NCBI GenBank assembly: GCA_002412545.1
Contig: DHVG01000002.1
Coordinates: forward strand, 241,872 to 305,871
Origin: Elusimicrobia bacterium UBA5214
GTDB taxonomy: Bacteria; Elusimicrobiota; UBA5214
DNA length: 64,000 bases
Direction: 5' to 3'
Shown here one piece after another: positions 2,109-39,190 of the stretch; within the stretch, counting starts at the first letter, position 1, and every line of letters begins with the position of its first letter. Under the pieces are notes generated by a model. It did no database searches and was not told where the DNA came from. It saw only the letters and a list, made by a program, of their open reading frames with translations. The position numbers and the translations under genes are program-made.

Positions 2109-2855
2109 ATGGGGATGCTTATTATGAAAAAGGATTATTATAACAAGGCAGTGGAAGATTCTACGGAAGCAAAACAGACAAACACAAGAGAAGCAGAAGC
2201 ATACTGCAACCATGGGGTTGCTTGTTATAGAAAAGGATTACATGATAAGGCAATAGAATGCTACACAAGAGCAATACAGATAAACCCAAAATTAGAAGAC
2301 GCATATTACAACCGCGGGTTTGTTTATGCTGAAAAAGGATTATATGGTAAGGCAATAAAAGATTACACAAAAGCAATATGGATAAACCCAAAATCTAATG
2401 ATGCATATTACAACCGTGCGAATGTTTATATTGCTAAAAAACTATATGATAAGGCAATAGAAGATTATACAATGGCAATACAAATAAATCGAGAAGATAC
2501 ATTTGCATACTATAAGCGCGGGATTGCCTATTCTGGAAAAGGATTATATGACAAAGCAATAGAAAATTATACAAAAGTAATACAGATAAACCCGAAATTA
2601 GAAGGTGCATACTACGAGCGCGCACTTGCTTATAGTAAGAAGGGATTACTTGATGAAACAATCGAAGATTGCACAAATGCGATAAAAGCAAATCCAAAAT
2701 ATAGAAATGCATACCTTACCCGCGGTGCTGCTTATCATAGTAAAAGTTTAGATAAATTATGTATTTCTGATTGGGAAAAAGCCGCAGATTTAGGTGACGA
2801 AGAAGCAATACAAAAATTAGGAGAAATTTTTAATATTGACTATTTGGTCACCTAG
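2109..2855 (+). CDS. Tetratricopeptide (TPR) repeat protein
   Basis: About seven consecutive 34-residue repeats of the form AYYNRG..Y...G.YDKAIEDYTKAIQINP. Confidence 0.85.
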   Translation: MGMLIMKKDYYNKAVEDSTEAKQTNTREAEAYCNHGVACYRKGLHDKAIECYTRAIQINPKLEDAYYNRGFVYAEKGLYGKAIKDYTKAIWINPKSNDAYYNRANVYIAKKLYDKAIEDYTMAIQINREDTFAYYKRGIAYSGKGLYDKAIENYTKVIQINPKLEGAYYERALAYSKKGLLDETIEDCTNAIKANPKYRNAYLTRGAAYHSKSLDKLCISDWEKAADLGDEEAIQKLGEIFNIDYLVT

Positions 2856-2926: not shown

Positions 2927-4099
2927 ATGGTTCCTTTTTTCGTAGACAACAGGGGAAAAACACTAATTTCTGTTTTCGATAAGTTGCTTCCTGAATCCGA
3001 AAAATGTTTAGTTGCAGTTGCCTATTTGACAAGTGATGGTCTAACGGCGCTCGGGAAAGTTTTAGGAAGAGTCAGAAATAACGTTAGAATGATTATCGGG
3101 ACAGGTTTTGGACTTTCTGATCCGAAGGCAATTAAGAAACTTAGGAGAATGCCAAAGATTACCTGTAAGATAATGGTAAGCGAATCAAAAGGATTGGATA
3201 GTTCATTCCATCCCAAACTTTACATTTTCTATCTCAAAAACAATGTTGTTCTCTCGGTTGGGTCGTCTAACTTAACCCATGGGGGGTTAGAAAGAAATGA
3301 GGAGGCGAATATAGTCTTGCAATTACCACAGGAGGCTCCATTGGTCAAACAAGCCGAAAAGAGCTTCGAAAGTTGGTGGGCGAAGGCTTTAATTCCTTCT
3401 GATGAACTTCTCAGAAAACTGCAACAAGCACATAGAAAGAGGCAAGAATGGGAAAGAAAAGTCACGAGAGAAGAGGAAAAACTACTCTCAGAATCGGAAG
3501 AAACGATACCAGTAAAATTTGGGGAGAATATGAAGAAGGAGATTAAACAGATATGCAAAGATGTGGGCCCCAAAAGAATACAAATCCGCCGGAGAAGTGA
3601 GAATGAAGCGATTAAAATTCTAAGAAAAAGCAGGAACAACTTCAATAAAAATCTCCTTGAAAAGTTCTTAGAAAAGGCCGATACGGATTACTCGGAGAGA
3701 GGGTCCTCTCAAGGACGATTTGTTTCCACAATTCTAGGTCGAAACAAGAATTTGATTCTCGGGGATAGCATAAAGAAAATACAGTTACTAATTCGTGAGA
3801 TTTTCTTTGAAGAAAGAATAGATAAGGTAGAAGAACTCGTCGGAGACCTAAAAGGAATTAAATACGGATTTGTTTCACTTTTATTATATTTAAAGGACCG
3901 AAACCGTTTTAACTTTTATACTCCACATAAGATAGAACGAGGATTAAGAAATATACGCAAGATAAAAGACAAATTCAGAGGAAATTTCCAAAAAAGATAC
4001 GAACAGTTCAATCACCTTGCCAACAAAATAAAATCAGACTGTAACTGTGAACCACAAGCCATGGATATTATATTTGCTGTTAAGGGAGAGGAAAAGTAA
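2927..4099 (+). CDS. PLD-family (HKD) nuclease-like protein with an uncharacterised C-terminal domain
   Basis: Single HKD-type motif FHPKLYIFYLKNNVVLSVGSSNLTHGGL at about residues 93-120, as in Nuc/BfiI/NgoFVII-type PLD nucleases. Strong RBS GGGGGAG 8 nt upstream. The C-terminal ~200 aa have no motif I recognise. Confidence 0.7.
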   Translation: MVPFFVDNRGKTLISVFDKLLPESEKCLVAVAYLTSDGLTALGKVLGRVRNNVRMIIGTGFGLSDPKAIKKLRRMPKITCKIMVSESKGLDSSFHPKLYIFYLKNNVVLSVGSSNLTHGGLERNEEANIVLQLPQEAPLVKQAEKSFESWWAKALIPSDELLRKLQQAHRKRQEWERKVTREEEKLLSESEETIPVKFGENMKKEIKQICKDVGPKRIQIRRRSENEAIKILRKSRNNFNKNLLEKFLEKADTDYSERGSSQGRFVSTILGRNKNLILGDSIKKIQLLIREIFFEERIDKVEELVGDLKGIKYGFVSLLLYLKDRNRFNFYTPHKIERGLRNIRKIKDKFRGNFQKRYEQFNHLANKIKSDCNCEPQAMDIIFAVKGEEK

Positions 4100-4112
4100 G
4101 AAAACTAGAATG

Positions 4113-4184
4113 TAGAAAATATAGGAATTAGAGGAACTAGGGGCGTTTCCTAATTAAATTAAAGATGGAGAAAGAATTTAAAAT
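4113..4184 (+). repeat. Left copy of an imperfect direct repeat bracketing the AIPR gene
   Basis: The core GGGGCGTTTCCTAATTAAATTAAAGATGGAGAAAGAATTTAAAAT (4140-4184) aligns with 6374-6419 at about 40 of 46 positions by hand. It includes a duplicated ATGGAGAAAGAA start. Confidence 0.7.
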
Positions 4185-4304
4185 AAAGGGACCGTTTCTG
4201 TTTTTTTTCTTATGACTTGAATCGTACAGGGCTTGGAGTGAAAATTTTAAAAGAAGTATAGTCTAAATTTGATTAAATAACACCTTTAATCTGGGAGGTT
4301 TAAA

Positions 4305-6035
4305 ATGAACAGAAAAGAATTGTTTGATTTTACGTTACGAAGCATTAAAGAAAAATCTAAAAAATTCCGGCTTGCAGAACCACAAGGTTTTATTAAATGG
4401 TTTATTGAGCTTTATTTTCTTAATCCGCAAGAAGTGTTTGTTTCTGATGGAAGTAAAGATGGTAAAATCGACTGCTTTTTTAACACCAATAATGGGCGAA
4501 ACGTTAAACATTATCTGGTAAATGCTAAATACACTTCCGAATATGATAATAAGGCTCCAGTTAAGTTTTATGAAGAGATTTCTTATTTTTGTCATGTTGT
4601 TCAAAATAAAGATGCTAGAGGAGAGTATTTGCAAAAAGCGGTTAAGCCAGAATTAGCCCAAAGATATAAAAAATTATTTGATTACTATGATGCTGGCACA
4701 GCCAATTTAGTTTTCGTAACTAATCATACGAAAAATGATCCCCATTATAAAGAAGTTAAAGAATTATCCATAAAGATATTTCATTTGGATGATCTCATCC
4801 AGTTTATTGTTGATGATATAGATATTGCGATGCCGAGAACAGACGACTTAGTACTTAATGATATTCATAATGTGTTATCGCCTGATAAAAAAGACACAGA
4901 AGTCTCTACTTCAATTGTTTTTGCTAAGTTATATGATTTTGTGAAATATATGGAAGATGATCCTTACGATTTACTTTTTGCGAGAAATGTAAGATTGGAT
5001 TTGGGGAATACTCAAGTCAATAAAGAAATAAAAAAAACATTTGAATCAAAGCCTACTGAATTCGCTTTTAGCAATAATGGAATTACGATGCTTTGCGAAC
5101 GTCACATACATAATCCCGGCACAAAAGAACTAACGATTGTAAATCCTCGCGTAGTAAATGGTTCTCAAACCTTGCATAGTATACGTACTATTCAAACTCC
5201 ACCATTAAATGCGAGAGTAATGTTGAGAATTATTGAAATACCGCCTCTGTATGGCGATGATTTACCTGAAAAAATATCTAAAAAGAAAGATATAATGAAT
5301 AAAATTGCAATAAGAAGCAATCAACAAAATCAAATAAAACTGTGGAATTTAGTCGCCAATGATGATTTCCAATTGGAGTTGTATAGATTTTTCAGGGGGA
5401 AGGGTTTTTTCTATGAACGCAGAGAAAAAGAGTATAAAACGAGAAGTAGAGAATTAAGGAGCGTCCAAATTTATCAAGGCCCATCATTAACAAGCATGTG
5501 TCAGCTTATTTGTTGTTACAAATGGCATGACAAAAAATTAGGACCTGCTGTTGCGAGGAATTTAGCGAAGTTATTCGATGGTGCCACGTATGATATTATC
5601 AAAGCAACCAATCCCGAACTTGCTTATCAGCTGTTTCTTTTGGATAAGATAATTTATAAATACTGGGGATTGTTAGCTAACAAAAAATATATCAGCAATC
5701 TAAAAAACTACCCGCATCAATCATTATTTTCTTTAATAATAAAAGTTACAGAATTATCAAATGTTAAGTGGGGGAATCCAGATTTAACTCCGATTTTGGA
5801 AGATTACTGTAATAATGATTCAGAATACAAGAATCTGCGCAACTTTGTTAAGTCTTGTATAGATTTTATATATCAACACTACAAAAAAACTAAACAAGCA
5901 TATCTGAAGAAAGAGAAAGATGCTCTTTCAATTGCTAATTATTTTAAGTCAAATTTATATATGTCGTCGCTATTGAAACAGAACATATATTTTCCGTATA
6001 AGAAATTTACCAAAAAATTATTTCTGAAAATATGA
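4305..6035 (+). CDS. AIPR-family abortive infection (phage resistance) protein
   Basis: N-terminal SDGSKDGKIDCFF...YLVNAKYT (DG.D.GID ... K pattern). Central FSNNGITMLCE...LTIVNPRVVNGSQTLHSI matches the AIPR NGITI / IVNG.QT blocks. RBS GGGAGG. Visibly more AT-rich than the flanking core genes. Confidence 0.75.
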   Translation: MNRKELFDFTLRSIKEKSKKFRLAEPQGFIKWFIELYFLNPQEVFVSDGSKDGKIDCFFNTNNGRNVKHYLVNAKYTSEYDNKAPVKFYEEISYFCHVVQNKDARGEYLQKAVKPELAQRYKKLFDYYDAGTANLVFVTNHTKNDPHYKEVKELSIKIFHLDDLIQFIVDDIDIAMPRTDDLVLNDIHNVLSPDKKDTEVSTSIVFAKLYDFVKYMEDDPYDLLFARNVRLDLGNTQVNKEIKKTFESKPTEFAFSNNGITMLCERHIHNPGTKELTIVNPRVVNGSQTLHSIRTIQTPPLNARVMLRIIEIPPLYGDDLPEKISKKKDIMNKIAIRSNQQNQIKLWNLVANDDFQLELYRFFRGKGFFYERREKEYKTRSRELRSVQIYQGPSLTSMCQLICCYKWHDKKLGPAVARNLAKLFDGATYDIIKATNPELAYQLFLLDKIIYKYWGLLANKKYISNLKNYPHQSLFSLIIKVTELSNVKWGNPDLTPILEDYCNNDSEYKNLRNFVKSCIDFIYQHYKKTKQAYLKKEKDALSIANYFKSNLYMSSLLKQNIYFPYKKFTKKLFLKI

Positions 6036-6361
6036 CCCGCTTATAAAGCTTATAAATCTGTAAATCTATATGACGTTTCTATCTTCTAAATGATTAACGG
6101 CGACCTTATTAAAACTAGGGACAGTTACCGTTATTTCGTAATAAAATAGTCGCTGTCCCATTTTATGTTTTCTCACAATAAAATAAGCGTTGCTTCCCAT
6201 TCCTATTTTGACTTGTTGTGCGCATAGATTATGAATAACTTATAAAAATGGGGACGCTTTTAATTATTTTATCGGATAAGAATAGAAAAATCGGAACATC
6301 CTTACTTTCGCATGGATGAATTACCCTTTCGGTCATCCCGTCGCCTCGCATAAAAAATATT

Positions 6362-6419
6362 TAGAAAGGAATTGGGGACGGTTCCTAATTGAATTAAAAA
6401 TGGAGAAAGAACTTAATAT
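6362..6419 (+). repeat. Right copy of the direct repeat (upstream region plus the first six codons of the DUF1805 gene)
   Basis: GGGGACGGTTCCTAATTGAATTAAAAATGGAGAAAGAACTTAATAT. See the left copy. Confidence 0.7.
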
Positions 6420-6687
6420 TGCCGGAAAAAAATTTCAGGGATACGAAATAAAGATTGGGGAGAAAACTTTAGTCTTGATTGTTGGCGAGAAGGGTTATCT
6501 TGCCTGCGGGTATTGGAATTTAGAAGCAGCGGATAAATTCAATGACTGCTGTGCAATTATTACCGGGGTGAAGATGGTTGAAGAAATGTTAGAAAAGAAA
6601 GTGGTCGCGGTAAGTAAAAAAGCGCTGGAATTAGGAATACATACCGAGATGACCGGAAAAGAAGTCCTTGAGAAAATTCCTGCCTGA
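6400..6687 (+). CDS. DUF1805 (YunC-like) small protein
   Basis: MEKELNIAGKKFQGYEIKIGEKTLVLIVGEKGYLACGYWNLEAADKF...ITGVKMVEEML has the length and pattern of B. subtilis YunC-type proteins. Internal ATG 6400 is preferred over the ORF-track start 6316. Confidence 0.7.
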   Translation: MEKELNIAGKKFQGYEIKIGEKTLVLIVGEKGYLACGYWNLEAADKFNDCCAIITGVKMVEEMLEKKVVAVSKKALELGIHTEMTGKEVLEKIPA

Positions 6688-6696
6688 AAACTTGAG

Positions 6697-7449
6697 TTAC
6701 TGGCGCAGGGAAGCTTTGGAAAAAATATGTTCGGGTATTTCCACATCAAAATCAATTGACTCAATTACCAGTTCGGTGCCGTCACCTTCCTTAAGCACAT
6801 CCTTAAAAACCATCCTTTTCGGGTACCAGCGTTCCCCAACCTTAAATACTTCATTGATTTGGAAAGTTTTCAGCAGTTTACCGCCCCGGGCAAAGAGGTC
6901 TTCCCGTAAAGGAAGGAATCTTTCCTTATCCACCCAGAGTTTACGAGAATAGTAAGCGGTATCTTTGGTGGCGTTCAGTTCAAGCAGGTAACATTGACGT
7001 TCACCGATTTTTTCTTCTCCGCTAACTTTTGCCTCGTAACTATTGCTTAAGACCGGGTCTTCCATAAAATCCTCATAGGAAATATCCGAACCGGACATTG
7101 ACTGCCGGAGCATATGCCCGGCAATCTTGATTATCCGGTCAGTAGAAGGTGACCACATCCAGAGTTCATCTTTCAGCTTAAGCATTTTCGTGCCTTTTTC
7201 CCGTGCCGGCTCAAGATATTCGGTGAACGCTTTTTCCTGTCCTTGAGCCCAGGTCTTGGTTTTAATCGTGCGGGTGCCCCGCCGTCCTTTGATTACCATT
7301 TGACCTACGGAGATATGGTTCGTTGCCGCATAATTCTTGTCCACTCTTTTCAGAATTTCTTTACCGGAAAGTTCCTCCGCATAAACCGAACTGTCTATTA
7401 AAAAGAATATTAAACTGAATGACAACAAAAACAAAATTAATTTCTTCAC
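6697..7449 (-). CDS. LolA-like outer-membrane lipoprotein-sorting family protein (secreted)
   Basis: Signal peptide MKKLILFLLSFSLIFFLIDSSVYA. The family is typically encoded next to paired FtsX-type permeases. It is the last gene of the ABC cluster. Confidence 0.6.
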   Translation of the reverse strand: MKKLILFLLSFSLIFFLIDSSVYAEELSGKEILKRVDKNYAATNHISVGQMVIKGRRGTRTIKTKTWAQGQEKAFTEYLEPAREKGTKMLKLKDELWMWSPSTDRIIKIAGHMLRQSMSGSDISYEDFMEDPVLSNSYEAKVSGEEKIGERQCYLLELNATKDTAYYSRKLWVDKERFLPLREDLFARGGKLLKTFQINEVFKVGERWYPKRMVFKDVLKEGDGTELVIESIDFDVEIPEHIFSKASLRQ

Positions 7450-8976: not shown

Positions 8977-10142
8977 CCAATCTTTCCTTTCAAAGCTTCG
9001 GTTGGTTTTAATCCGGAAATACGGCGACTTGGTAAATAACTTACAATGGTCACGGTGAGCATCACAATCAATACGGTGCCGGTAATCAGCCAGGCAGAAT
9101 ATACCGGGAACATTCTTACTTTGAGTGCGAATCCGTATTCTTCCATCGCCTGGGGCAAAGGGATACCGGTATTGGCAGTATAAATCAGAACCGGGGTCCC
9201 GTAAATTGCCGCTACTCCGATACCAAGAATACCGTTCAATGTTCCTTCAATGGTAAAAAGCAAGATTACTTTCAGTCGGGTCATTCCCAAAGCCATCAGC
9301 GTGCCGATTTCCTTCCGGCGTCTGAAGATAGAAAGGACCTGGGTATCAAAAATTGCCAGCATAATCAGGAAAAGCAAGACCAGATACATAATTGCACTCG
9401 CAGTCCGTTTAGATTTTACCACATCACTGACATCTTTTAAAAGAAAATCTTGGTTCCGGAATTGCCAATCAGAAAGGTCTTTCTCTCCTACTACCTCTTT
9501 ACCGACCACGATTATCGTCGCCTGATTAGTCAGACCGGTCATTTTCCGTAATCTCTCCAGCGGTAGCCATATTTGTCCGTTATCAATCGTCGGCACATTG
9601 GTATTCATTATTTCCACAATTTCACCTTCCACGGCATCAAAAGTGCCATAAGCATCTCTCCAGCGAATCGTCACTGAATCACCGAGTTTAAGCGAATTTT
9701 TTCTGGCCATAATTTTTCCGACCATAACCGGCAGGATATCTTTCCCTGAATCAAGTTTAGCCGTAGGAATATCCAGTATTTTCTGCCCGGGGTCAATCCC
9801 TTTGATTAATACCGACTGAACCCTGCCTTTAGAATAGAGATTAGCCTGCCGAATTAAGATTGGCAGAGCTTTCTTCTTCGCAATTAAAGGTTTTAATTCC
9901 TGGGGAACCGAACCATGCCCTTCATCTAAAGAAAGGACATCGTAAGGGTCATAATTCTTATGCCAGTATTGCCCGCCAGCAATTTCGTCTTTAATTACAT
10001 CTCTGGTCGCCTGACGGTACATCCCGCTGAAAAGACCCTGGTGCCAGATAATCAGGACATAGGTCAAGGAAAGGACACCGACATTAAGAACAGTGCGTAA
10101 TTTTGCCCCGATAAGGTTCCGATAAGCCAATTTCAATAACAT
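8973..10142 (-). CDS. ABC transporter permease, FtsX/MacB-like
   Basis: Same architecture as its neighbour. C-terminal block RRKEIGTLMALGMTR is typical of FtsX-family permeases. Confidence 0.85.
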   Translation of the reverse strand: MLLKLAYRNLIGAKLRTVLNVGVLSLTYVLIIWHQGLFSGMYRQATRDVIKDEIAGGQYWHKNYDPYDVLSLDEGHGSVPQELKPLIAKKKALPILIRQANLYSKGRVQSVLIKGIDPGQKILDIPTAKLDSGKDILPVMVGKIMARKNSLKLGDSVTIRWRDAYGTFDAVEGEIVEIMNTNVPTIDNGQIWLPLERLRKMTGLTNQATIIVVGKEVVGEKDLSDWQFRNQDFLLKDVSDVVKSKRTASAIMYLVLLFLIMLAIFDTQVLSIFRRRKEIGTLMALGMTRLKVILLFTIEGTLNGILGIGVAAIYGTPVLIYTANTGIPLPQAMEEYGFALKVRMFPVYSAWLITGTVLIVMLTVTIVSYLPSRRISGLKPTEALKGKIG

Positions 10143-10160
10143 TTTTCTCTCCTTGTGCTA

Positions 10161-10238
10161 CTAACCACTACCCACTCACCACTCACCACTAACCACCAAC
10201 CACTAACCACTCTCTACTGTCTACTGACTACTCACTAC
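10161..10238. repeat. Heptamer array (CTNACCA x7, then CTNNCTA x4), running into the last codons of the ABC ATPase
   Basis: Read directly. The reverse complement of the second half (AGTAGNG words) is the same word family found inside hypF. Confidence 0.8.
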
Positions 10239-12320: not shown

Positions 12321-13040
12321 TCAATAAATTGAGGGTAAATAGGATACCGGAGCTAACCCTTTTTGCGTTTCTTTATCCAGTAGTCCGTAATAAATATCCA
12401 TCAGGTGTTTAGGTTTGTATTCGCCGGATACTACCTTTTTTATTCTTTTAGTCCTCTCGGCATTTGCTGCTGGTTTGGTAAGAATATTGAAATTATTCGG
12501 AGCGATAATCATTGCCACTATTGAGAGGTATTCGTTTTCGGTTAATCGGCGAAATTTTTTGTGATAATAGAGTTCAGCGGCATTTTCCAAACCATAAACT
12601 TGTTTATCTCTCGCTTTTCCTAAATAAACATTATTGATAAATAATTTGAGTTGGTCATTTTTTGATACCAGTGGGTCAAGTGCAAAACGGGCGATTAATG
12701 TTTGTTTCAATTTTGCAAAAAAACCAGGTTTAAATTTATCAAAATAATATATTTTTACCAATGCCTGGGTTATAGTAGTTATCCCTGCTCCCGGTGTTTT
12801 CAGGTCAACCCCTTGATGTTTATAGAAATTTGGGTCTTCAACTGCAAGTAAAGCATTTAATTGCCACTGGCTGAGATTCTCAACTTTAAGGGTAATATTT
12901 TCTTTATTTAGCGCTTTCTTGATTATCGCCGGTGTCTCAGTCCGAGCTTTAACTACAATTACTATGTAGTAACCGGATATTAATAAGACAATTCCAATAA
13001 AAATTAAAAACATTTTACTAATTACTGCTAATATTTTCAT
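12321..13040 (-). CDS. Monofunctional peptidoglycan glycosyltransferase (GT51) domain protein
   Basis: N-terminal TM anchor, then GT51 motifs AVEDPNFYKHQGVD and GAGITTITQALVK. Confidence 0.8.
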   Translation of the reverse strand: MKILAVISKMFLIFIGIVLLISGYYIVIVVKARTETPAIIKKALNKENITLKVENLSQWQLNALLAVEDPNFYKHQGVDLKTPGAGITTITQALVKIYYFDKFKPGFFAKLKQTLIARFALDPLVSKNDQLKLFINNVYLGKARDKQVYGLENAAELYYHKKFRRLTENEYLSIVAMIIAPNNFNILTKPAANAERTKRIKKVVSGEYKPKHLMDIYYGLLDKETQKGLAPVSYLPSIY

Positions 13041-13116
13041 TTAATTTTTTTAGATAAATAAAAACGTCCGCATTTATTCTTCCAAGTTTCAGTTAAAATT
13101 ACTTTACATTTTTTTC

Positions 13117-13144
13117 TTGACTTTTAGAAATTAATTACTATAAT
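13117..13144 (+). promoter_or_regulatory. Sigma70-like promoter upstream of the methyltransferase
   Basis: TTGACT - 16 nt - TATAAT, about 30 nt upstream of ATG 13176. Confidence 0.5.
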
Positions 13145-13175
13145 ATAGTAAAAGACAACCAAATTGTAGATTATT

Positions 13176-15905
13176 ATGAATCAATTATTTAAAACTGTAT
13201 CTTTCCCCAAGGAAAAAAGCGAAACAAATAAAACTGAAATTGTTCGCCTAGCTTTCAACAAATCGACAGATTTAGATCTTTACAATATTCTTAATCCTCT
13301 TAGAAGCTCGGATATTAGGGCCCTCCTACCAGATACAAGCTTCAAGAAGTTAACCGAACAAGCGGAACTGGAACGACGTTCATTAAATCAATTGTGCTTG
13401 TTTTTGCTTTCAAAGAAAATAGAAGAAATCAAAAAATCATACGGCGAAAATGTATCTATCCCCCATATTCTAAGTAAAAATTTAGTATATACGGATATTA
13501 ATAAAAAATCAGCAACATTTCAAGACAATAAGATTAACAAAATTCATCGGTGGTATCCATACATTGAAGGTTTTTCATGCACATTTGTCCATGAAATAAT
13601 AGACAATCTACCTTACAAACCAAAATTAATATACGATCCTCTCGCCGGAACTGGTACTACTCAACTTGCCGCAAGTCATAAAAATATTCCTTCCGCATAT
13701 TCTGAAATAAATCCTTTTATGAGCTTCATTGGAGAGTGCAAAGTAAATAAAGTTATACACTTTATCAATGATTTCTACGTGAATCATAGAATGATTGAAA
13801 ATTTCATTAATTTTTTACCAAAGAAATTTAGAAAGCCAACTTCAAATTATATCCAATATGATCAATATTTGGAAAGATTAGGCACGTCAGCATATTTTGA
13901 AAAAGAAGTACTTGAAAGTTTATTAAAAATAAAATCTCTAATAAAAGATTTTTTCGAACCGAAATCTATATTAAAAGATTTTTGTTTATTTGCGTTATCT
14001 ACAATTATAGTTACTGTTTCAAATACAATTAGAAGGGCTGATTTACGGTATAAAAGAAAAGGTGAGAGAAAATATTCCGTAAATGATACTTTACCTTTAT
14101 TCATAAACAAATTGCAAGAAATCTTGTCTGATATTGATTCCATAAAAAATTTATCTTTGTGTGAAACCACACTTGTTTCTAATGATGCGAAAAACATACC
14201 AAAAAATCATGATAAGAAATTTGACTTAGTTATTACATCACCTCCATATGTAAATGGAACTAATTATTTTCGTAACACAAAACTCGAATTAGTTTTGCTA
14301 GATTTCGTTCATAATGTTCAAGAAATTAACTCATTAAAAAAAGAGTCTGTATCTTCGGGAATTAGTAATGTCATTTTGAAAAATAAGGTAAACAACATCA
14401 GAATTCCAGAACTTGAACCAATCGTTAATGAACTTACAAAGTGTGCATACGATAAAAGGATACCAGTTTTGATAGAAAGCTACTTCAGTGATATGCATAA
14501 AGTTTTATCAAATATATCTGAATATTTAGAATCGGAATCGCATTTTTATCTTGATATTGGAGACTCCCAATTTGCAGGTGTCCACATTCCAACAGATAAA
14601 ATATTAGTAACTATAGCTGAACGAAATAATTTTGAATTGATTGATACCAAATTTATTAGAGAGCGTTTTTCAAAAAATGGCATGCCTTTAAAACAAGTGC
14701 TATTATTATTTAAAAAAACCAGGAGTGCTAAAAAGATCTTATTTGGACACGTCGCCACGTGTAATACTGCAAAAGACCTTCTTTTGAAAAATTATCAATT
14801 TTTTAAAGAAACACTCCCGTATAAAGAACCTCCTTATAATAGTCGCAATTGGGGTCATGCTTTACACAATCTTTGTTCATATCAAGGGAAGATAAAACCT
14901 TCATTAGCTCATTTTTTAGTTAAGCTTTTTAGCAAGGAGGGCATGAGGGTTTTAGATCCTCTCTGTGGTGTCGGAACAATACCTCTAGAAGCATGCTTGC
15001 AAGGGCGCATTGGTCTAGGAAATGATCTAAGTTTATTAGCATATGTGAATACTTTTACTAAAGTCGGCAAACCCAATAGTAACAAAACCTACGACGAACT
15101 AGATAAATTAGATAAATATATTGAAAAATACTTGGTTTCTAAAGAAGAGGCGGAAAAAATACATTTTGGATATAATAGAAATATCACGGAGTATTATCAC
15201 GTAGACACTCTTAGAGAAATCATAACGGCCAGGAATTATTTTAAACAAATTGATTCATATGATTGTGAAAAGTCGCTATTGCTTTCTGCTATTTTACATA
15301 TTTTGCACGGGAATAGACCATATGCTCTTTCAAGAAGGTCGCATAATGTAACTCCTTTAGCACCTAATGGACCCTATAAATACAAATCATTAATTGAAAA
15401 AACAAGGATAAAAATAGAAAAAACATTAAAATTAGATCGTTATGATAATTTTAAGTTTGGAATGGTTTTTAACGAAGATTTTAGGAATTTAGACAATTAC
15501 ATTGAACCTAATTCTATTGATTTGATAGCCACATCCCCTCCTTTTTTTGATTCAACGCGTTTTTATATGAGTAACTGGATCAGAATGTGGTTTTGTGGTT
15601 GGGATAAAGAAGATTTTGATATAAAGAAAGAATACTACTTAGAAACACAACAAGTAAAAAATATAAAAGTCTATAATCAATTCTTTATAATATGTAAAGA
15701 CTTGCTAAAAAAAGACGGGAGTCTTGTTATGCATCTTGGAAAATCAGAAAAGCACAATATGGGTAAAACGTTAAGTGAAATTGCTGTCAATAATGGTTTT
15801 GAAGTCTTTGGACTTTTTGACGAAAATGTCTTACATTGTGAAAAGTTTGGTATAAAAGATCAAGGTAGTACAAAAGCCCATCAATTTCTTTTCCTTCTTA
15901 AGTAA
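13176..15905 (+). CDS. Tandem-duplicated DNA methyltransferase (two N6-A/N4-C type modules in one polypeptide)
   Basis: Module 1 has the AdoMet motif DPLAGTGTT (nt ~13634-13660) and the catalytic motif ITSPPYVNG (~14230-14258). Module 2 has LDPLCGVGTIP (~14951-14983) and ATSPPFFDS (~15529-15555). The order and spacing are the same in both halves. Confidence 0.8.
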   Translation: MNQLFKTVSFPKEKSETNKTEIVRLAFNKSTDLDLYNILNPLRSSDIRALLPDTSFKKLTEQAELERRSLNQLCLFLLSKKIEEIKKSYGENVSIPHILSKNLVYTDINKKSATFQDNKINKIHRWYPYIEGFSCTFVHEIIDNLPYKPKLIYDPLAGTGTTQLAASHKNIPSAYSEINPFMSFIGECKVNKVIHFINDFYVNHRMIENFINFLPKKFRKPTSNYIQYDQYLERLGTSAYFEKEVLESLLKIKSLIKDFFEPKSILKDFCLFALSTIIVTVSNTIRRADLRYKRKGERKYSVNDTLPLFINKLQEILSDIDSIKNLSLCETTLVSNDAKNIPKNHDKKFDLVITSPPYVNGTNYFRNTKLELVLLDFVHNVQEINSLKKESVSSGISNVILKNKVNNIRIPELEPIVNELTKCAYDKRIPVLIESYFSDMHKVLSNISEYLESESHFYLDIGDSQFAGVHIPTDKILVTIAERNNFELIDTKFIRERFSKNGMPLKQVLLLFKKTRSAKKILFGHVATCNTAKDLLLKNYQFFKETLPYKEPPYNSRNWGHALHNLCSYQGKIKPSLAHFLVKLFSKEGMRVLDPLCGVGTIPLEACLQGRIGLGNDLSLLAYVNTFTKVGKPNSNKTYDELDKLDKYIEKYLVSKEEAEKIHFGYNRNITEYYHVDTLREIITARNYFKQIDSYDCEKSLLLSAILHILHGNRPYALSRRSHNVTPLAPNGPYKYKSLIEKTRIKIEKTLKLDRYDNFKFGMVFNEDFRNLDNYIEPNSIDLIATSPPFFDSTRFYMSNWIRMWFCGWDKEDFDIKKEYYLETQQVKNIKVYNQFFIICKDLLKKDGSLVMHLGKSEKHNMGKTLSEIAVNNGFEVFGLFDENVLHCEKFGIKDQGSTKAHQFLFLLK

Positions 15906-15923
15906 CAAATACTGTCTTTTTAT

Positions 15924-16913
15924 TCATACATAACCTAATAGTTTTTTATTTTTTAAAGACAATTTATCAATTAACGCATAATCTTTAATCAATTTCTTCA
16001 ACTCCTTAATTCGTTTATTCAAATTTGATCGTTCACGTACCTGTAGATACCTAGTTACACACCTATCAACATTGACATTTGAGTTAACTGTAGGATCTTT
16101 CCGAGATAATAACGCTAAATCAGCACCTGTTATTCTTGCCAATCTTATTAATTCATTGTTAGTATAAAAATGACTGGGCCATTTATTTCTCTTGTTATTG
16201 TTTGCTTTTTTTGAAAGCAATGCTGCATTTTCTTTTGATAAAGGATATAACCAACTTGATGGTAATATGTGGTCTATTTCCCATGAGTCGCGATCATTTT
16301 TATTTAGCTTTTTGGCTGTCTTAAAACACGTGCTATTAAACCTTCTAAATAAATCATCTATAAAGTTTTTGTCTACTGCTTGATTTTCACTCTCAAGCAA
16401 CAAATCTCCCACTCTTCTTTTAATATTCGACTCATATAATTGTTGTTTTGTCCTTTTTGGATTCAAGTATGCATTAATAGCCCCTTTGCAGCTTCTACAT
16501 TCCATTTGTTTTTCCAATGGTCCCCATCCTGTATGTCTGTCAAAAGCATTTGATGGTAAAATTCGTCCACACGCATTACATTGCTTCCAATAAGATTCTT
16601 TGTTTTCTGTTATAATTCTAAAAAAAGCTTGCCAGAACCTTCGACATTTAATTGAAGTTGGGTCAGTAAATTCAGAAGGCCACTCACTAAATGGCAAAGG
16701 TGAGTCTTTACTATGTAAGTAATTACATTCTTTACATTTCCAAGCCGCAGTAGAGTATGCATCGTTGGGATTCAACAAAGTATCTCCTATAGAAAATAAA
16801 TTCAAAGCATCACAACAGATGCAAATATAACCAACCCATGCATTATGTACTTTCTTTCCAATTCCTTTGATTCTTGGTAGTCCCGTTCTATGTTTTGTTT
16901 TTCTCCTACTCAT
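15924..16913 (-). CDS. HNH endonuclease with multiple CxxC zinc-finger motifs (candidate restriction partner)
   Basis: CxxC pairs (CICC, CKEC, CNAC, CRSC) in the N-terminal half. HNH core WEIDHILPSSW...NNNKRNKWP. Convergent with the methyltransferase, with an 18-nt gap. Confidence 0.7.
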   Translation of the reverse strand: MSRRKTKHRTGLPRIKGIGKKVHNAWVGYICICCDALNLFSIGDTLLNPNDAYSTAAWKCKECNYLHSKDSPLPFSEWPSEFTDPTSIKCRRFWQAFFRIITENKESYWKQCNACGRILPSNAFDRHTGWGPLEKQMECRSCKGAINAYLNPKRTKQQLYESNIKRRVGDLLLESENQAVDKNFIDDLFRRFNSTCFKTAKKLNKNDRDSWEIDHILPSSWLYPLSKENAALLSKKANNNKRNKWPSHFYTNNELIRLARITGADLALLSRKDPTVNSNVNVDRCVTRYLQVRERSNLNKRIKELKKLIKDYALIDKLSLKNKKLLGYV

Positions 16914-17184
16914 TTCTATTTAATTTTTACCTTGATAATAGATTGTTATTACTATATTTACGAACAATACATTGTACATTATACAAAAATGCCTGGCAAA
17001 TTCCTACTAAGAAAGCAGAGAGTCATACCTTCTCTGAAAATTGACAATTTTATCTCTGATTTGTCCATTGTATAAGTATACCGAAATTTAGTAAAAATTA
17101 TGAACTTTTCAACGGATACTATTTATATAAAAGCAGAATTGTGACCTTCTAATTTTGGAGACAAGATAAGAACCATCTACTCCA

Positions 17185-17352
17185 TCATTTTGAGTATTTC
17201 TTTTCCTCAAGTTCTTTTTCCTTTTTCCTCTCCTTAAGAATCGCCTTAGTTAATTTTCCTTTTGTCTTCAAGATTCCGGCAATCTTTTCAAAATGTTCAT
17301 CGGCAGATGACTGAAAAACAATGCGGTGATGTTTGCGAATTTTAGCAGGCAT
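17185..17352 (-). CDS. Small Lys-rich hypothetical protein (55 aa) downstream of fic
   Basis: ORF below the track cutoff: MPAKIRKHHRIVFQSSADEHFEKIAGILKTKGKLTKAILKERKKEKELEEKKYSK. AAGGA lies ~10 nt upstream and the ORF starts 41 nt after the fic stop. No recognisable family. Confidence 0.3.
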   Translation of the reverse strand: MPAKIRKHHRIVFQSSADEHFEKIAGILKTKGKLTKAILKERKKEKELEEKKYSK

Positions 17353-17393
17353 TGTGATTCATCCTTTCAGCATTTATATTCCTATTCCTTGTT

Positions 17394-18416
17394 TTATCTT
17401 GCAAGTCCAAATTTACCGGTCTTTCTGCCCCCGTATCTTTTAACAATTTTTCCTTTGATTAAAGGATTGAGAAGAAAATGTGCTCCTTGAACGGTTACTT
17501 TTAACACTGACGATATCTCTTTTGCAGTTAGGTTTCCGGACTCGCGCAAAAGTAACAGTAATTTTTCCTGTTTAGGGGTTAAAGATAGTTGCTCAAGTCC
17601 TTTTGTTTTAGGTAAAGAGATAATCCTTTTCCAGGCACGCTCAAGCGAATCGGCAATTATTTCTAAATAAAACTCAAGCCATTGGGTTAAGTTACCTTTT
17701 TCTTCACGGACAGTATTTAAAGCCGAATAGTAACTGTGTCTGTGTTCATAGATGATGTCATCAATAGCAAATATATGCAGGGTGTCAAATTTACGTCTTA
17801 ACAATTCCCAAGTTCCCAGTGTCCGAGCAACTCTCCCGTTACCGTCAACGAAGGGGTGAATTGCGACAAATTGATAATGGGTAATTCCTGATGAAATTAC
17901 CGGTAAATATCTCGCTGATTCATTGTTTATCCATTCCAAAAATTCATTCATCAGTCCGGGAACGTTTTCTGGTGGTGGCGGGGTATAAATTACTCTGCCT
18001 ATTCCATCTACGATATAGTTCTGGATAGTCCGGTAAGTTCCCACGGGTTCGTGTTCAACCGCTCCTTCTCCGATTATTTTATGGAGTCGGCAGATGTCTT
18101 CGTTAGTCAAAAATTCTTTATCCGCATACTTCTGGATATAGCGGAGGACTGCAAGGTAGTTAACTACTGCTCTTTCGGTCATATTCAGTTTTTTGGTAAT
18201 TCTTTTTTCTGAAGCAAGGGCTCTAACTTCGGGTAAACTTAAAATAAACCCTTCAATAGCAGTTGACCCCATTGCATTTCTTATTGCTGTCTCTTTTTGT
18301 AATGTTGGTTTCCAGGCAACCTGAATCGGTGCACTGATGATTCGCTGACGCAGAGAACTTATTTCGTCAATGAGTTTGGTTAAATGTAAGGATATGGAAA
18401 ATTTTGGTTCTAACAT
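17394..18416 (-). CDS. Fic family protein (AMPylase-type) with C-terminal winged-helix domain
   Basis: Fic motif HPFVDGNGRVAR. N-terminal autoinhibitory-type motif STAIEG ([S/T]xxxE[G/N]). C-terminal LTPKQEKLLLLLRESGNLTAKEIS resembles a wHTH. Confidence 0.88.
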   Translation of the reverse strand: MLEPKFSISLHLTKLIDEISSLRQRIISAPIQVAWKPTLQKETAIRNAMGSTAIEGFILSLPEVRALASEKRITKKLNMTERAVVNYLAVLRYIQKYADKEFLTNEDICRLHKIIGEGAVEHEPVGTYRTIQNYIVDGIGRVIYTPPPPENVPGLMNEFLEWINNESARYLPVISSGITHYQFVAIHPFVDGNGRVARTLGTWELLRRKFDTLHIFAIDDIIYEHRHSYYSALNTVREEKGNLTQWLEFYLEIIADSLERAWKRIISLPKTKGLEQLSLTPKQEKLLLLLRESGNLTAKEISSVLKVTVQGAHFLLNPLIKGKIVKRYGGRKTGKFGLAR

Positions 18417-23430: not shown

Positions 23431-23930
23431 CTTAATACCTCCTAGTACCAAGCACCAAATTCCAAGTTCCAAATAGCAAACAATAGTTAAATATCAAATA
23501 CAAAATGTCAAACTTATTTTGTTTTCTCAAGAATTTTACTAAATATTTTTATAAACTCACTTGCTTCTTTAATTAGTAATTCTCTCTCTGTTTCATCATT
23601 GTTATCCTTTATCTCCACCAATTTTAACCAGTATCTGCTTTCCTTAGATTCTTTTCGACATATCTTTATTCGCAAGGCAAAATCTTTTTTGCTTAATGCT
23701 TCATTTGCTTCAATATAATTTGCACCAACTGAACCAGATGCTATTTCAATATTAGCCATTGTTTTAGGCAGTTTCTTTGTAAATTCTATTACTCGTTTTG
23801 CGAACTCAAATGTTCTTTCTTCAAGGTCATAATGTTTTGAATTTGCAATTTGAACATTAGATATTGTTTGGGATTTGGAGTTTGGAGCTTGCAATTTACT
23901 GTTGTTAATTATATTCACAGTTGTATTTTT
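23431..23930 (-). mobile_element. Palindromic repeat element carrying the four-helix-bundle gene as cargo (candidate)
   Basis: Flank 23440-23513 (CCAAATTCCAAGTTCCAAATAGCAAACAAT...) and flank 23835-23925 (GTTTTGAATTTGCAATTTGA...TTGGGATTTGGAGTTTGGAG) are mutually complementary in word content. Both flanks recur without the ORF at 33690-33876. Confidence 0.45.
23514..23918 (-). CDS. Four-helix-bundle protein (23S rRNA intervening-sequence protein / Avd-like family)
   Basis: YDLEERTFEFAKRVIEFTKKLP...SGSVGANYIEANEALSKKDFALRIKICRKESKESRYWLKLV matches the family pattern. The first ~30 codons translate low-complexity repeat DNA. Confidence 0.8.
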   Translation of the reverse strand: MNIINNSKLQAPNSKSQTISNVQIANSKHYDLEERTFEFAKRVIEFTKKLPKTMANIEIASGSVGANYIEANEALSKKDFALRIKICRKESKESRYWLKLVEIKDNNDETERELLIKEASEFIKIFSKILEKTK

Positions 23931-26312
23931 TCATCGCTGATATCGCTTTATATTGAAGTGGGCGATGATTGCTTGGCCGAGAGAGACACCCCCGTCATTA
24001 CAAGGAACTTTTTTCTGGTAGTAAACCTTGAAATTATTTTTCTCTAAAAGAGCAACTGTTCTTTTCATTAAGTATAAATTCTGGAATACCCCACCGCTTA
24101 AGCAAACAGTATTTATTCCTCTATTTTGCAATATTTTTTTACAAAGTTCAAGAATAACCTGAGCAATGGTATTATGGAATCTTGCGGAAATTATTCCTTT
24201 ACTTGTTCCTCTCTTGAGGTGATTACCTCTCAAGTCATCTAAGACACAGGCAAAAATTGATAATTGGTCAAGAATGTATTTGCCATCAATAGATTTTATT
24301 TCAAATGGGTAACTACCCTCTTCTTTTTCATCAGTAACCATTTCTAATTCCATTGCTGCTTGGGCATCATAGTTTACTTCTTTTCTTATCCCTAAAAGAG
24401 CCGAGACCGCATCAAAAAATCGTCCACAACTGGATGTAAGCGGGGAATTAAAACCGCTTTTTAATTGAGCAATGGTTGCTTGGATTTCGTTTTCTTTTAA
24501 CCCTTTGCCTAGTGTTTCGGGTAAAGGTTCATTCAAACTATGCAGATAAGCAATGGCTATGCGGTAAGGTTTTTTGATTGCCAGTTCACCACCGGGCAGA
24601 GGTAGATAGGAAAAATGTCCTACGCGTTCAAAATCTTCGTAGTCGGCGAGAAGGAATTCGCCACCCCAGATTTTACCATCAGTTCCGTAACCGGTGCCGT
24701 CAAAAGCAACTCCGATGACTTTGGAATTAGGTAATTCATTTTCCAGCATACAACTGGCGATATGAGCGTGATGGTGCTGGACAGCAACAGTAGCGAGTAG
24801 CGAGTAGAGAGTAGAGAGTTCTAAAGCGTATTTGGTGGAGAAGTAGTCCGGATGGAGGTCGTAGGCGATAATTTTTGGGTTGACCCGAAAAAGTTTTTTG
24901 TAAAGTTTTAAAGTATTCTCAAAATGTTCCAGTGTTTCTAAATTTTCCATATCCCCGATATGTTGGCTGATGAAGGCATATTTTTCTTTGGTCAGACAGA
25001 AAGTATTTTTCAAGTCCGGACCAGTAGCAAGAATTTCTTCTACTTTAAAAGGCAGGCGTATGGGGTAAGGAGCATAACTTCTTGCCCGACGCAGAATTTG
25101 TGCCCCGTGATTAAAGACTCGGGTTACTGAATCATCGTATCTTGAATAAATATCACGGTTATGAAGCAGAAAATAGTCGGCAATGTTTTTTAACCGTCTT
25201 AATGCTTCTTCGTTTTCCATGGCGATTGGTTCTTCGCTGAGATTACCGCTGGTCATTACTAAACAATTGGTAATTGGTGATTGGTAATTGGTAATTGGGT
25301 GAAACAACAGATGGTGGAGGGGAGTGTAGGGGAGCATTACTCCTTGATATTTCTGGTAAGGAGCGACAAATCTGGAAATAGAAGAACCAGCTTTTTCTCC
25401 GAGTAAAACAATTGGTCGTTGGGGAGAAAGCAGTAATTTTGTTTCTTCCGCGGAAAGAAAACAATATTTTTTTATCGTTTCCAAGTCCGGCATCATTAAA
25501 GCGAATGGTTTATCCCGGCGCAGTTTTCTTTTCCGTAATTCTTTTACTGCCCGGTCATTAAGGGCATCACAAGCAAGATGGAATCCGCCTAATCCTTTAA
25601 GTGCAACAATTTTTCCCTCTTTAAGTAATTTGATTGTTTTCTCAATTGCCTTCTCACCTTTTATTGGCTCAATAAATTGAGCCGCTACATTATTTTTTTC
25701 ACCTTTTCCTAAACTCTTAGCCCTTAGCTCTAAGTTCTGAACTAATTCTACTTCCGGTCCACATTGCGGGCAAGCGTTAGGTTGGGCATGAAAACGCCGA
25801 TTTGCCGGGTCATCATATTCTTCTTGACATTCCGGACACATTTTAAAAGAACGCATTGTCGTTTTCGGTCGGTCGTAAGGTATATCTTCAATAATTGTGA
25901 ACCGTGGACCACAATTGGTACAATTGATGAAAGGGTAACGGTAGCGCCGGTCTTTTGGGTCAAAAAGTTCTTTTAAACAGTCATTACAGGTAGCAATATC
26001 CGGTGAGACGGGCTGGAATTCTTTTTCTATAGCGATACTTTCTTTGATTACAAAATTTATGTAGTTTTTCGGTTTAATATTTTCAACTGCTATGGAATCA
26101 ATTTTTGCTGCCGGTGGGGGAGATGTCTTTAATTCCTTAAGAAATGATTCCAGCGATTTTTTTTCTCCCACGATTTCAAAGATTACCCCTTGAGAAGTGT
26201 TACATACCCAACCTTTAAGATTATTTTTTTTCGCAATTCGGTAAACGAAGGGACGGAATCCGACACCCTGAACAATACCTTTTACCGTTATTCTCTGATA
26301 CTTCCTATTCAT
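23931..26312 (-). CDS. hypF: Carbamoyltransferase HypF
   Basis: Acylphosphatase-like N-terminus (VKGIVQGVGFRPFVY), two CxxC...CxxC zinc-finger pairs, YrdC-like and Kae1-like domains, and VQHHHAHIAS. Confidence 0.95.
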   Translation of the reverse strand: MNRKYQRITVKGIVQGVGFRPFVYRIAKKNNLKGWVCNTSQGVIFEIVGEKKSLESFLKELKTSPPPAAKIDSIAVENIKPKNYINFVIKESIAIEKEFQPVSPDIATCNDCLKELFDPKDRRYRYPFINCTNCGPRFTIIEDIPYDRPKTTMRSFKMCPECQEEYDDPANRRFHAQPNACPQCGPEVELVQNLELRAKSLGKGEKNNVAAQFIEPIKGEKAIEKTIKLLKEGKIVALKGLGGFHLACDALNDRAVKELRKRKLRRDKPFALMMPDLETIKKYCFLSAEETKLLLSPQRPIVLLGEKAGSSISRFVAPYQKYQGVMLPYTPLHHLLFHPITNYQSPITNCLVMTSGNLSEEPIAMENEEALRRLKNIADYFLLHNRDIYSRYDDSVTRVFNHGAQILRRARSYAPYPIRLPFKVEEILATGPDLKNTFCLTKEKYAFISQHIGDMENLETLEHFENTLKLYKKLFRVNPKIIAYDLHPDYFSTKYALELSTLYSLLATVAVQHHHAHIASCMLENELPNSKVIGVAFDGTGYGTDGKIWGGEFLLADYEDFERVGHFSYLPLPGGELAIKKPYRIAIAYLHSLNEPLPETLGKGLKENEIQATIAQLKSGFNSPLTSSCGRFFDAVSALLGIRKEVNYDAQAAMELEMVTDEKEEGSYPFEIKSIDGKYILDQLSIFACVLDDLRGNHLKRGTSKGIISARFHNTIAQVILELCKKILQNRGINTVCLSGGVFQNLYLMKRTVALLEKNNFKVYYQKKVPCNDGGVSLGQAIIAHFNIKRYQR
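24789..24818. repeat. In-frame heptamer array AGTAGCG x2, AGTAGAG x2 inside hypF
   Basis: Encodes LSTLYSLLAT just before the conserved VQHHHAH. Same word family as the reverse complement of 10208-10238. Confidence 0.7.
25267..25301. repeat. In-frame heptamer array TTGGTAA/TTGGTGA x5 inside hypF
   Basis: Encodes PITNYQSPITN. A 33-nt stretch is identical except for one base to 32325-32357 in an unrelated gene. Confidence 0.8.
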
Positions 26313-33689: not shown

Positions 33690-33876
33690 CCCTAAAATAC
33701 CAAATCTCAAATTCCAAATAACAAACAATATTTAAGTTTTAAACTCCAAATTTCAAACATTAAGGTTCTCTCTTCTAAGTCATAGTGTTTTGAATTTGGA
33801 ATTTGAGTATTAGATATTGTTTGTAATTTGTGGTTTGGAGATTGTGATTTGGTGCTTGGAACTTGTAATTTATCCA
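33690..33876. repeat. Deletion derivative of the four-helix-bundle element between two MrpD-like genes
   Basis: 33775-33860 aligns with 23826-23900 (GTCATAnTGTTTTGAATTTGnAATTTGAnnATTAGATATTGTTTG...). 33700-33760 aligns with 23450-23513. About 375 bp of ORF are missing. Confidence 0.7.
33707..33876 (-). pseudogene. Remnant of a four-helix-bundle gene (N-terminal ~36 codons only) inside a repeat element
   Basis: Translates to ...LQVPSTKSQSPNHKLQTISNTQIPNSKHYDLEERT, which parallels NSKLQAPNSKSQTISNVQIANSKHYDLEERT of the intact gene at 23514-23918. It then breaks off. Confidence 0.6.
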
Positions 33877-39144: not shown

Positions 39145-39190
39145 CTAATTACCTAATTACCCAATCACCCAATTAACCAATTCACTAACT
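39145..39190. repeat. Octamer array (CTAATTAC/CCAATCAC/CCAATTAA)
   Basis: Reverse-complement word family of the GGTAATTGG arrays at 1944, 25267 and 32325. Confidence 0.7.

Follow-up and report, generated by a model that had tools for sequence, protein, structure and literature searches.

An AIPR/AbiU-like gene and a duplicated DUF1805 gene start in Elusimicrobia bacterium UBA5214: a possible footprint of homology-anchored gene capture

In a 64,000-nt stretch of the genome of Elusimicrobia bacterium UBA5214 (assembly GCA_002412545.1, contig DHVG01000002.1, positions 241,872 to 305,871 of the forward strand; here called the window), a gene of the AIPR/AbiU abortive-infection family stands between two imperfect direct copies of the start of the gene that follows it, which encodes a DUF1805 protein. 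We find that the AIPR gene came on a foreign fragment that does not reach from repeat to repeat, at a spot where related genomes have other defence genes or none, and that the downstream copy of the repeat (copy B) is the native 5' region of DUF1805. The upstream copy (copy A) may have been left by homology-anchored capture on the DUF1805 5' region, a reading in which both the anchoring step and a related intermediate donor are inferred, and to which we give a probability of roughly 0.45. What the locus preserves is the usual kind of trace that gene capture leaves at a hotspot of variable content, and not a new kind of mobile cassette. A preliminary description of this DNA is thus partly supported: it rightly spoke of an insertion that was homology-assisted and free of recombinases, and was wrong in its repeat-bounded cassette and in its argument from GC content.

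The AIPR fragment and the variable spot

The AIPR gene (4305-6035, plus strand) is intact and encodes 576 amino acids. The protein matches the Pfam family AIPR (PF10592) with 101.9 bits against a cut-off of 25, and the PADLOC AbiU model with E = 9.5e-36 over profile positions 76-525 of 537, and by these matches it is assigned to the AIPR/AbiU family. It resembles the other single-gene abortive-infection proteins of this family in its full-length match to both models, phage resistance being a predicted role, and wherever the gene was seen its neighbours include restriction and defence genes.

An unrelated defence island (loci L016 to L023) contains a close allele, with 94% identity in protein and 93.5% in DNA. 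Blastn aligns window positions 4283-6108 with L016 9979-11804 at 93.5% identity, and window positions 4264-6093 with 9960-11789 of L037, a second host of that type, at 92.5%. The sole part that the window has in common with other hosts of the allele is 4264-6108 (plus strand), from 41 nt before the AIPR ATG to 73 nt past its stop codon, and AIPR brought along the 41 nt upstream of it and a Shine-Dalgarno sequence of its own. The preliminary description took AIPR for a horizontally acquired insertion and proposed a database search for it in other contexts; the acquisition is borne out, and the search does recover the fragment in L016/L037-type islands. The segment from repeat to repeat, which had been taken for the mobile cassette, is not the DNA that these hosts have in common, and the common DNA ends in a truncated neighbouring gene.

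The L016 context has type III restriction, OLD/UvrD (Gabija-like), DUF2130 and PIF1 genes upstream of AIPR, and a 59-aa open reading frame (ORF) followed by UvrD/PDDEXK_1 genes downstream; L037 has SIR2 and HerA-like genes upstream of AIPR instead. At the right end of the fragment the window reads ATGATTAACGGCGACCTTA and L016 reads ATGACTAGCGGCGACCTTA (MINGDL... against MTSGDL...), after which the two diverge. The break falls near codon 6-7 of the 59-aa ORF, and the first ~6 codons of this ORF, found behind AIPR in both L016 and L037, survive in the window as the start of a truncated zinc-ribbon ORF (6090-6108, plus strand). Because the fragment ends inside a truncated neighbouring ORF, its breakpoint is arbitrary and illegitimate, and the alignments show a piece cut at no particular point from an L016/L037-type context and not a cassette with defined ends.

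Among the three hosts the synonymous divergence (dS) of AIPR is 0.23-0.26, with a ratio of nonsynonymous to synonymous divergence (dN/dS) of 0.12-0.14, while the neighbouring UvrD gene has a dS of 0.80 between L016 and L037, a pair for which AIPR has 0.235. Since the AIPR value is far below that of the host UvrD gene, the allele must have spread horizontally and recently, and purifying selection acts on it. These results demonstrate the foreign origin of the fragment; the same AbiU-like allele is present in three host backgrounds, at a synonymous divergence 3-4 times below that of the surrounding host genes.

As a separate observation, L016 and L037 (first 10000 nt compared) are 85% identical over 10.7 kb and differ in the defence cargo upstream of AIPR (OLD/AAA_15 with UvrD, DUF2130 and PIF1 in L016; SIR2_2 with DUF87/HerA-like and KTSC in L037), with a breakpoint 22 nt before the AIPR start. 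One member of the L016-type AIPR protein cluster carries the NCBI label 'Patescibacteria group bacterium'.

The fragment has entered a variable spot. On the plus strand the window has genes for V-type ATPase subunits B (108-1244) and D (1301-1936), a TPR-repeat gene, a PLD-family nuclease gene, AIPR and DUF1805, an arrangement that is identical in four further assemblies, among them GCA_002400355.1. Three related contigs from two lineages (L015, L025 and L026) have DUF1805 directly behind ATPase D, across a spacer of 68-100 nt that lacks the repeat element. On the ATPase side no relative is closer than L015 (84% nucleotide identity in ATPase B and 87.5% in D), whose homology with the window in ATPase D stops at the stop codon. 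Other relatives have a PDDEXK_3 gene between ATPase D and DUF1805 (L006 and L012), a DUF6036 nucleotidyltransferase gene with AbiEi/AbiEii at the spot (L008 to L011), or an ATPase_2 gene that precedes DUF1805 and itself follows the tail of another gene (L033). In L014 a Fic gene (491-1516) lies between DUF1805 and the LolA-like gene, two genes that are 10 nt apart in the window, so that both sides of DUF1805 take up cargo. With the same flanks and different or no cargo in relatives, gene content shows the spot to be a defence hotspot. The ancestral state was thus ATPase D followed by DUF1805, and ~4.4 kb (TPR, PLD and AIPR) were gained in the window lineage. That this is an insertion site, as the preliminary description held, agrees with the genuine empty sites of L015, L025 and L026.

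Variable defence cargo between conserved flanking genes is familiar from defence islands and core-genome hotspots of E. coli and Pseudomonas. The present locus is like these in its conserved flanks (ATPase D and DUF1805), in the existence of empty sites, and in the variety of its cargo (AbiU-like, PLD nuclease, PDDEXK_3, AbiE and ATPase_2), and is unlike them in that the spot is very small (0-4.5 kb), is without mobile-element genes, and belongs to an uncultured lineage seen in metagenomes only.

Base composition says little about the insertion. The segment had been called AT-rich, and the GC content of AIPR (0.314) does lie below that of the ATPase and LolA/FtsX genes (0.43-0.44), but the contrast misleads, as the window has a mean of 0.369 and a gene median of 0.37 (standard deviation 0.04), leaving AIPR only ~1.4 standard deviations low. 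It is the flanks that are GC-rich outliers, and TPR (0.341) and PLD (0.377) are part of the same lower-GC stretch. A second lower-GC block (0.31-0.34) at 12321-18416, between LolA/FtsX/ABC genes and hyp genes, contains a gene of the Eco57I/N6_N4_Mtase type (909 aa) and an HNH gene, after which comes a Fic gene with a GC content of 0.39.

The repeat and the element in front of DUF1805

Copy A (4132-4184) and copy B (6367-6419), both on the plus strand, match without gaps at 45 of 53 positions (85%) in a repeat search of the window, with a blastn E of 6.7e-10. Over the narrower span 4140-4184/6374-6419, described as matching at about 40 of 46 positions, we count 39 of 46; a further ~25 nt of upstream similarity (TAGAAA..GGAATT) included in that description needs gaps to align and is not significant alone. 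Both copies contain ATGGAGAAAGAA, which at 6400 is the start of DUF1805 and at 4165 the start of a dead-end 16-codon ORF (4165-4215, plus strand) reading MEKEFKIKGPFLFFFL*; the start at 6400 is confirmed by the starts of DUF1805 homologues. The repeat does, as described, duplicate the DUF1805 start. Copy A lies 33 nt past the PLD stop codon and comprises the element, the start codon and ~8 DUF1805 codons before it breaks off; in translation (tblastn), its similarity to the DUF1805 N-terminus reaches 4191 (75% over 20 aa), and similarity may extend over 4113-4191. On this evidence, the dead-end ORF is the remnant of a DUF1805 start.

The element consists of a 21-nt palindrome, AATTAGGGAC-G-GTTCCTAATT, followed by AAATTAAA and then ATG, with the palindrome at 6370-6390 in copy B and 4135-4155 in copy A. 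Homologues of DUF1805 (6400-6687, plus strand; Pfam DUF1805, E = 2e-18) form seven other clusters only, at 62-83% identity, in a collection of 5.8 billion proteins, and all eight homologues start with MEKE or VEKE. Some public annotations call the gene from an ATG at 6316 (6316-6687, 123 aa), running through copy B; this longer call is probably an annotation artefact, because all homologues begin at MEKE/VEKE, which here is at 6400.

The same element precedes DUF1805 in two other lineages, represented by L014 (the closest, 83% nucleotide identity) and L033, and in all three the homology begins at the same nucleotide (window 6368, L014 140/141, L033 1391/1392). Its 32-nt core is 81-88% identical between lineages; a match of 26/32 compares with a neutral expectation of 53% (P = 7e-4), the adjacent gene having a dS of 0.75, with synonymous sites near saturation. 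Conservation is significant against this neutral expectation only, since a Fisher test finds the core not significantly more conserved than the gene. Because the core exceeds neutral identity and is common to L014 and L033, it is a cis element under constraint that belongs natively to DUF1805 in these lineages. The comparison shows copy B to be the native copy, comprising the 5' control region and start of the gene. The definition of this conserved palindromic element in front of DUF1805 is itself a result of the analysis. The palindrome was also considered as an RNA hairpin, a reading we rejected on its weak folding (z-scores -0.9 to -1.5).

An nhmmer model of the core finds five significant copies across the window and 13 related loci (copy A, E = 1.3e-8; copy B, E = 7e-9), and all five directly precede DUF1805 or its orphan or are upstream duplicates. 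A 30-nt degenerate pattern of the repeat has exactly two sites in the window and none in 100 shuffles, and the 21-nt palindrome also occurs just twice in the 64 kb. We found no third copy of the repeat in the window or in ~300 kb of related loci, no significant further copies in the non-coding DNA around AIPR or at other junctions, no core element at the ATPase D-TPR and TPR-PLD junctions, and no match to the element in viral contigs, phages or plasmids.

These counts bear on the reading that the similarity is due to chance, or that the repeat belongs to a genome-wide family of intergenic spacers, which the preliminary description had named as what would refute its view. The genome is rich in intergenic tandem arrays with units of 7-8 nt, to which the element's left arm (AGGAATT units) is similar. 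However, 53 nt at 85% with the blastn E given above was not reproduced by any shuffle, a third copy is lacking, and the repeat reaches past the start codon of a gene into its first codons. The reading is effectively refuted, its probability being negligible; the 7-8-nt spacer family is real but is different from the direct repeat. Its arrays lie in many intergenic spacers of the window (among them 1944-1978, 10160-10232, 25265-25298, 32315-32350, 34002-34068 and 39147-39182), and the same kind stands behind ATPase D in L015; short spacer arrays are a feature of the lineage as a whole.

Some lesser similarities were noted in the same DNA. GGGAC motifs are clustered in the non-coding flanks of AIPR, and AGGGACGTTTCTT stands directly before the AIPR unit in L016; as additional copies of the element these are suggestive in position and below significance (nhmmer E = 3.4-15; Smith-Waterman p = 0.19), and we rejected them. 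An exact 13-nt match, TAGAAAAATCGGA, occurs at 2865-2877, just past the TPR stop codon, and at 6283-6295 in the tail behind AIPR; TGTAGAAAA also stands behind the PLD stop codon, at 4111. The similarity is not significant window-wide (e = 0.3).

Origin of the upstream copy

In the explanation that we favor, AIPR would have reached the spot as an arbitrarily cut foreign piece (4264-6108), originally from an L016/L037-type genome. The most likely source of the incoming DNA is a related strain in which AIPR already stood upstream of DUF1805. One end of this DNA, with the structure AIPR ... element-DUF1805, would have recombined through the DUF1805 region as a homologous anchor, and the other end would have been joined illegitimately just inside the resident DUF1805 start, so that the resident 5' end was orphaned as copy A and the incoming DNA supplied an intact one. 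A circle carrying the element and integrating by a Campbell-type single crossover would give the same outcome. In either case DUF1805 would stay intact, with the new cargo stacked behind the older TPR and PLD genes. The orphaned gene start would then record the order of arrival, TPR and PLD first and AIPR later, and the locus would provide a clean small example of single defence genes moving between unrelated bacteria and piling up at a fixed spot without mobile-element machinery, leaving the current understanding of defence-island dynamics unchanged.

Similar events have been proposed for orphan-module arrays of type VI secretion system (T6SS) effector-immunity, Rhs and contact-dependent inhibition (CDI) genes, in which homology-facilitated illegitimate recombination brings about sequential displacement (Kirchberger et al. 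2017, PMC5361080); for this type of recombination, de Vries & Wackernagel 2002 and Prudhomme et al. 2002 are the works cited there. In those arrays, as would be the case here, cargo enters beside a conserved anchor gene with one end homologous and the other illegitimate, the previous occupant is displaced, and a fragment of the anchor gene is orphaned with no dedicated recombinase. Two features that are expected of such recombination are seen at the present locus: copy A is an orphaned anchor-gene fragment directly behind older cargo (PLD), and the incoming DNA has an illegitimate end, where the AIPR fragment stops inside the 59-aa ORF. The locus differs from the T6SS, Rhs and CDI arrays in its anchor, the 5' end of a small gene downstream of the cargo where they use a toxin gene's 3' end, in its cargo of phage-defence genes where they carry toxin-immunity pairs, and in having only one orphan fragment. 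Unlike a demonstrated case, the mechanism at this locus is inferred.

The rough age of copy A appears compatible with the arrival of AIPR. At 40 sites where the three gene-linked copies agree, copy A has four private changes; ~4.3 would be expected for half the AIPR dS, and ~11.8 if copy A dated from the split between the window and L014, which is rejected (P = 0.003). An old tandem duplication common to the window and L033 was considered and rejected for the same reason, copy A being too little diverged, and because the phases differ. We also rejected a relic of an ancestral DUF1805 start behind the heptamer spacer: the similarity of 2000-2016 to L026 had an uncorrected p of 0.02, and tests at the protein and codon level gave no support.

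Several results count against capture anchored on DUF1805. The dating just given is weak, as it rests on 53 nt under constraint. The donor allele (X-AIPR-filler-repeat-DUF1805, without PLD) was not found among the relatives listed, none of which, outside this species, has AIPR upstream of DUF1805. An empty site with PLD directly before DUF1805 and a single repeat copy, which the preliminary description had predicted, was not found either, the empty sites that were found being ATPase D-DUF1805 without the element, and in an exact-protein look-up all five contigs with this PLD also carry AIPR. A search for mosaic structure within DUF1805, as a sign of a crossover, gave no clear signal. The two fillers on either side of the foreign fragment are likewise unhelpful: the left one (4185-4263, 79 nt) has no significant similarity to L016, L037, the relatives, Rfam, phages or plasmids, and the right one (6109-6366, 258 nt) has no significant match under strict scoring and no Rfam hit. 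Finally, in L033 the palindromic core stands twice, 62 nt apart with no gene between and with the start codon excluded, which favors a duplication that came before any insertion.

In the fillers we further found no pseudogene remnants of DUF1805, of the relatives' cargo genes or of window genes, and no match in phage, plasmid or viral collections. A similarity of the right filler to DNA downstream of AIPR in L016 (p < 0.005 with cheap gaps) was gone under stricter scoring and was rejected as a gap artefact.

The order of events suggested by L033 makes for a serious rival, although one that we regard as doubtful. A tandem duplication of ~60-90 nt, taking in the upstream element and first codons of DUF1805, would have arisen by slippage or unequal exchange, and AIPR would later have been inserted illegitimately between the copies, the repeat being no product of the insertion. 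Since the tandem core of L033 has no cargo between its copies, duplication of the element does not need an insertion; short tandem arrays are abundant in the genome, the window has another tandem duplication at a gene boundary (57054-57109/57132-57187), and the ends of the AIPR fragment are arbitrary and without homology to the recipient. Against this, the duplication in L033 is independent of that in the window, having a different phase, no start codon, and a tail behind the core that matches at only 7/21 positions. The insertion would also have had to fall exactly between copies only tens of nucleotides apart, and an event with two illegitimate joints should be rarer than one anchored by homology (PMC5361080).

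The preliminary description had left open site-specific or homology-assisted capture, with duplication or regeneration of the target; homology-assisted capture is the most likely of these, and there is no sign of site-specific recombination or of a transposase-made duplication of the target site. Its statement that no integrase or transposase is present is borne out for the 46 ORFs of the 64-kb window that are 120 aa or longer, among which we found no other recombinase. Only TPR, PLD and AIPR lie between the flanks, and no pair of terminal inverted repeats brackets 4185-6366. Target-site duplications would be 2-15 bp and initially identical, and the repeat here is 53-79 nt at 85%. Ends of the IS200/IS605 (PATE) type were considered and rejected, as the similarity continues for 29 nt beyond the hairpin, into the target gene, and neither a Y1 transposase nor further copies were seen.

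The palindrome might still be an attachment site for a recombinase encoded elsewhere, each insertion adding a copy in the manner of an integron array. In three lineages the point where homology breaks off is one and the same nucleotide, the left edge of the element; an upstream copy lies ~10-35 nt past the stop codon of the cargo both in the window (PLD) and in L033 (ATPase_2); and the element, with its 21-nt palindrome, is constrained and has been duplicated in two lineages. Core sites of tyrosine recombinases have spacers of 6-8 bp, whereas the arms of this palindrome are 1 nt apart. The repeat moreover extends beyond the palindrome over 21-37 nt of the target gene, DNA that a simple crossover at the core would leave unduplicated, and the copy number of two in the window, the lack of copies at the ATPase D-TPR and TPR-PLD junctions, the absence of the element from viral contigs, phages and plasmids, the lack of a recombinase, the arbitrary ends of the AIPR fragment and the lack of a GTTRRRY-type attC signature all speak against such a site, which we consider quite improbable.

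Comparison with known elements of this class leads to the same view. As with integrative elements that target gene ends (att sites at the ends of tRNA or protein genes), a direct repeat brackets the insert and the copy on the gene side restores an intact end, but here there is no tyrosine or serine recombinase in the segment or the window, the repeats are only 85% identical, and the DNA held in common with L016 and L037 is 4264-6108 with its arbitrary ends, not the repeat-bounded segment. Integron cassettes are bordered by attC sites, imperfect palindromes with RYYYAAC...GTTRRRY boxes at each cassette border, and depend on the integrase IntI. The locus is like these and like clusters of attC sites lacking integron integrases (CALINs) in its promoter-proximal stacking of single-gene cargo and in the palindromic element at cassette borders; it is unlike them in that there is no IntI and no attC architecture, the palindrome has no GTTRRRY box, the element is missing at 2/4 junctions, and it contains part of the target gene. 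Families of REP sequences, MITEs or spacers would have many dispersed copies, and the window has two. A bolder proposal is that the palindrome with AAATTAAA is the site of an unrecognised trans-acting cassette-stacking system, which would insert cargo at the DUF1805 start and rebuild that start each time. If true, it would explain the breakpoint at the same nucleotide, the constraint, and the independent duplication in two lineages, once with and once without cargo; we hold it to be very improbable.

It is also conceivable, if rather improbable, that copy A has been kept by selection as a DUF1805 promoter or operator for AIPR, placing both genes under the same regulator however the repeat arose. 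The element core is conserved well above neutral expectation between lineages, L033 has kept two intact palindromes, copy A stands 120 nt upstream of AIPR on the same strand, and its private divergence equals that of the functional copy in L014 (4/40 each). However, the palindrome of copy A is the most degenerate of the five, with three consensus mismatches against 0-2 elsewhere, neither copy has a detectable sigma-70-like promoter, the hairpins fold weakly, and AIPR has the upstream sequence and Shine-Dalgarno site that it brought along. Co-option would in any case account for the persistence of copy A and not for its origin.

Neighboring features of the window

The conserved left flank of the spot is ATPase D (plus strand; Pfam ATP-synt_D, E = 4e-53), and behind it is a native tandem-repeat spacer with 7-8-nt units (1944-2010; GGTGATTG x4.4 by TRF), which aligns with the heptamer spacer behind ATPase D of the empty-site relative L015 (p = 0.01). 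The first cargo gene is the TPR-repeat gene (2109-2855, plus strand; Pfam TPR_1, E = 6e-48), which is not in the relatives. Six tandem units of 102 nt (34 aa) at 2097-2714, with DNA identities of 70-83%, suggest that its repeat protein has recently expanded. The second is the PLD-family nuclease gene (2927-4099, plus strand; Pfam PLDc_2, E = 7e-12), which has an RE_NgoFVII N-terminal domain and weak PADLOC matches to mREase_IV, PbeA and DrmC. DUF1805, the presumed recombination anchor, is the conserved right flank, and next after it is the convergent LolA-like gene (6697-7449).

In relatives L006 and L012, AIRS (HypE-like) and hyp genes come directly after DUF1805. The PDDEXK_3 gene of these loci (9517-9981) stands between 12-nt direct repeats, CGTGCCCAT[TC]AG, that duplicate the last codons of ATPase D, and is also bracketed by a 14-nt inverted repeat; the bracketing repeats may be due to chance, yet they parallel the repeat around AIPR. 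Between ATPase B and D (1236-1301), the window has two inverted heptamer arrays with 23-nt arms that are 91% complementary. At this position L006 and L012 (8361-8901) and L015 (2093-2569) have a PF05635 (23S rRNA IVS protein) gene with inverted repeats of 21-29 nt, and another PF05635 gene is present in the window at 23514-23918.

Other repeats lie further along the window. The tandem duplication at 57054-57109/57132-57187 has a period of 78 nt and 82% identity, and includes the 3' end of an adenylosuccinate lyase gene and a TAGCCAA array. A 100-nt direct repeat of 80% identity (23798-23897 and 33751-33850), made up of heptamer arrays and an apparent minus-strand gene start, adjoins paralogous Mrp/Nuo-type antiporter gene sets (26.8-35.4 kb and 41.7-50 kb). 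The gene for a FecR-domain protein (59123-61303) has a tandem repeat with 27-nt (9-aa) units inside it, at 59190-59507.

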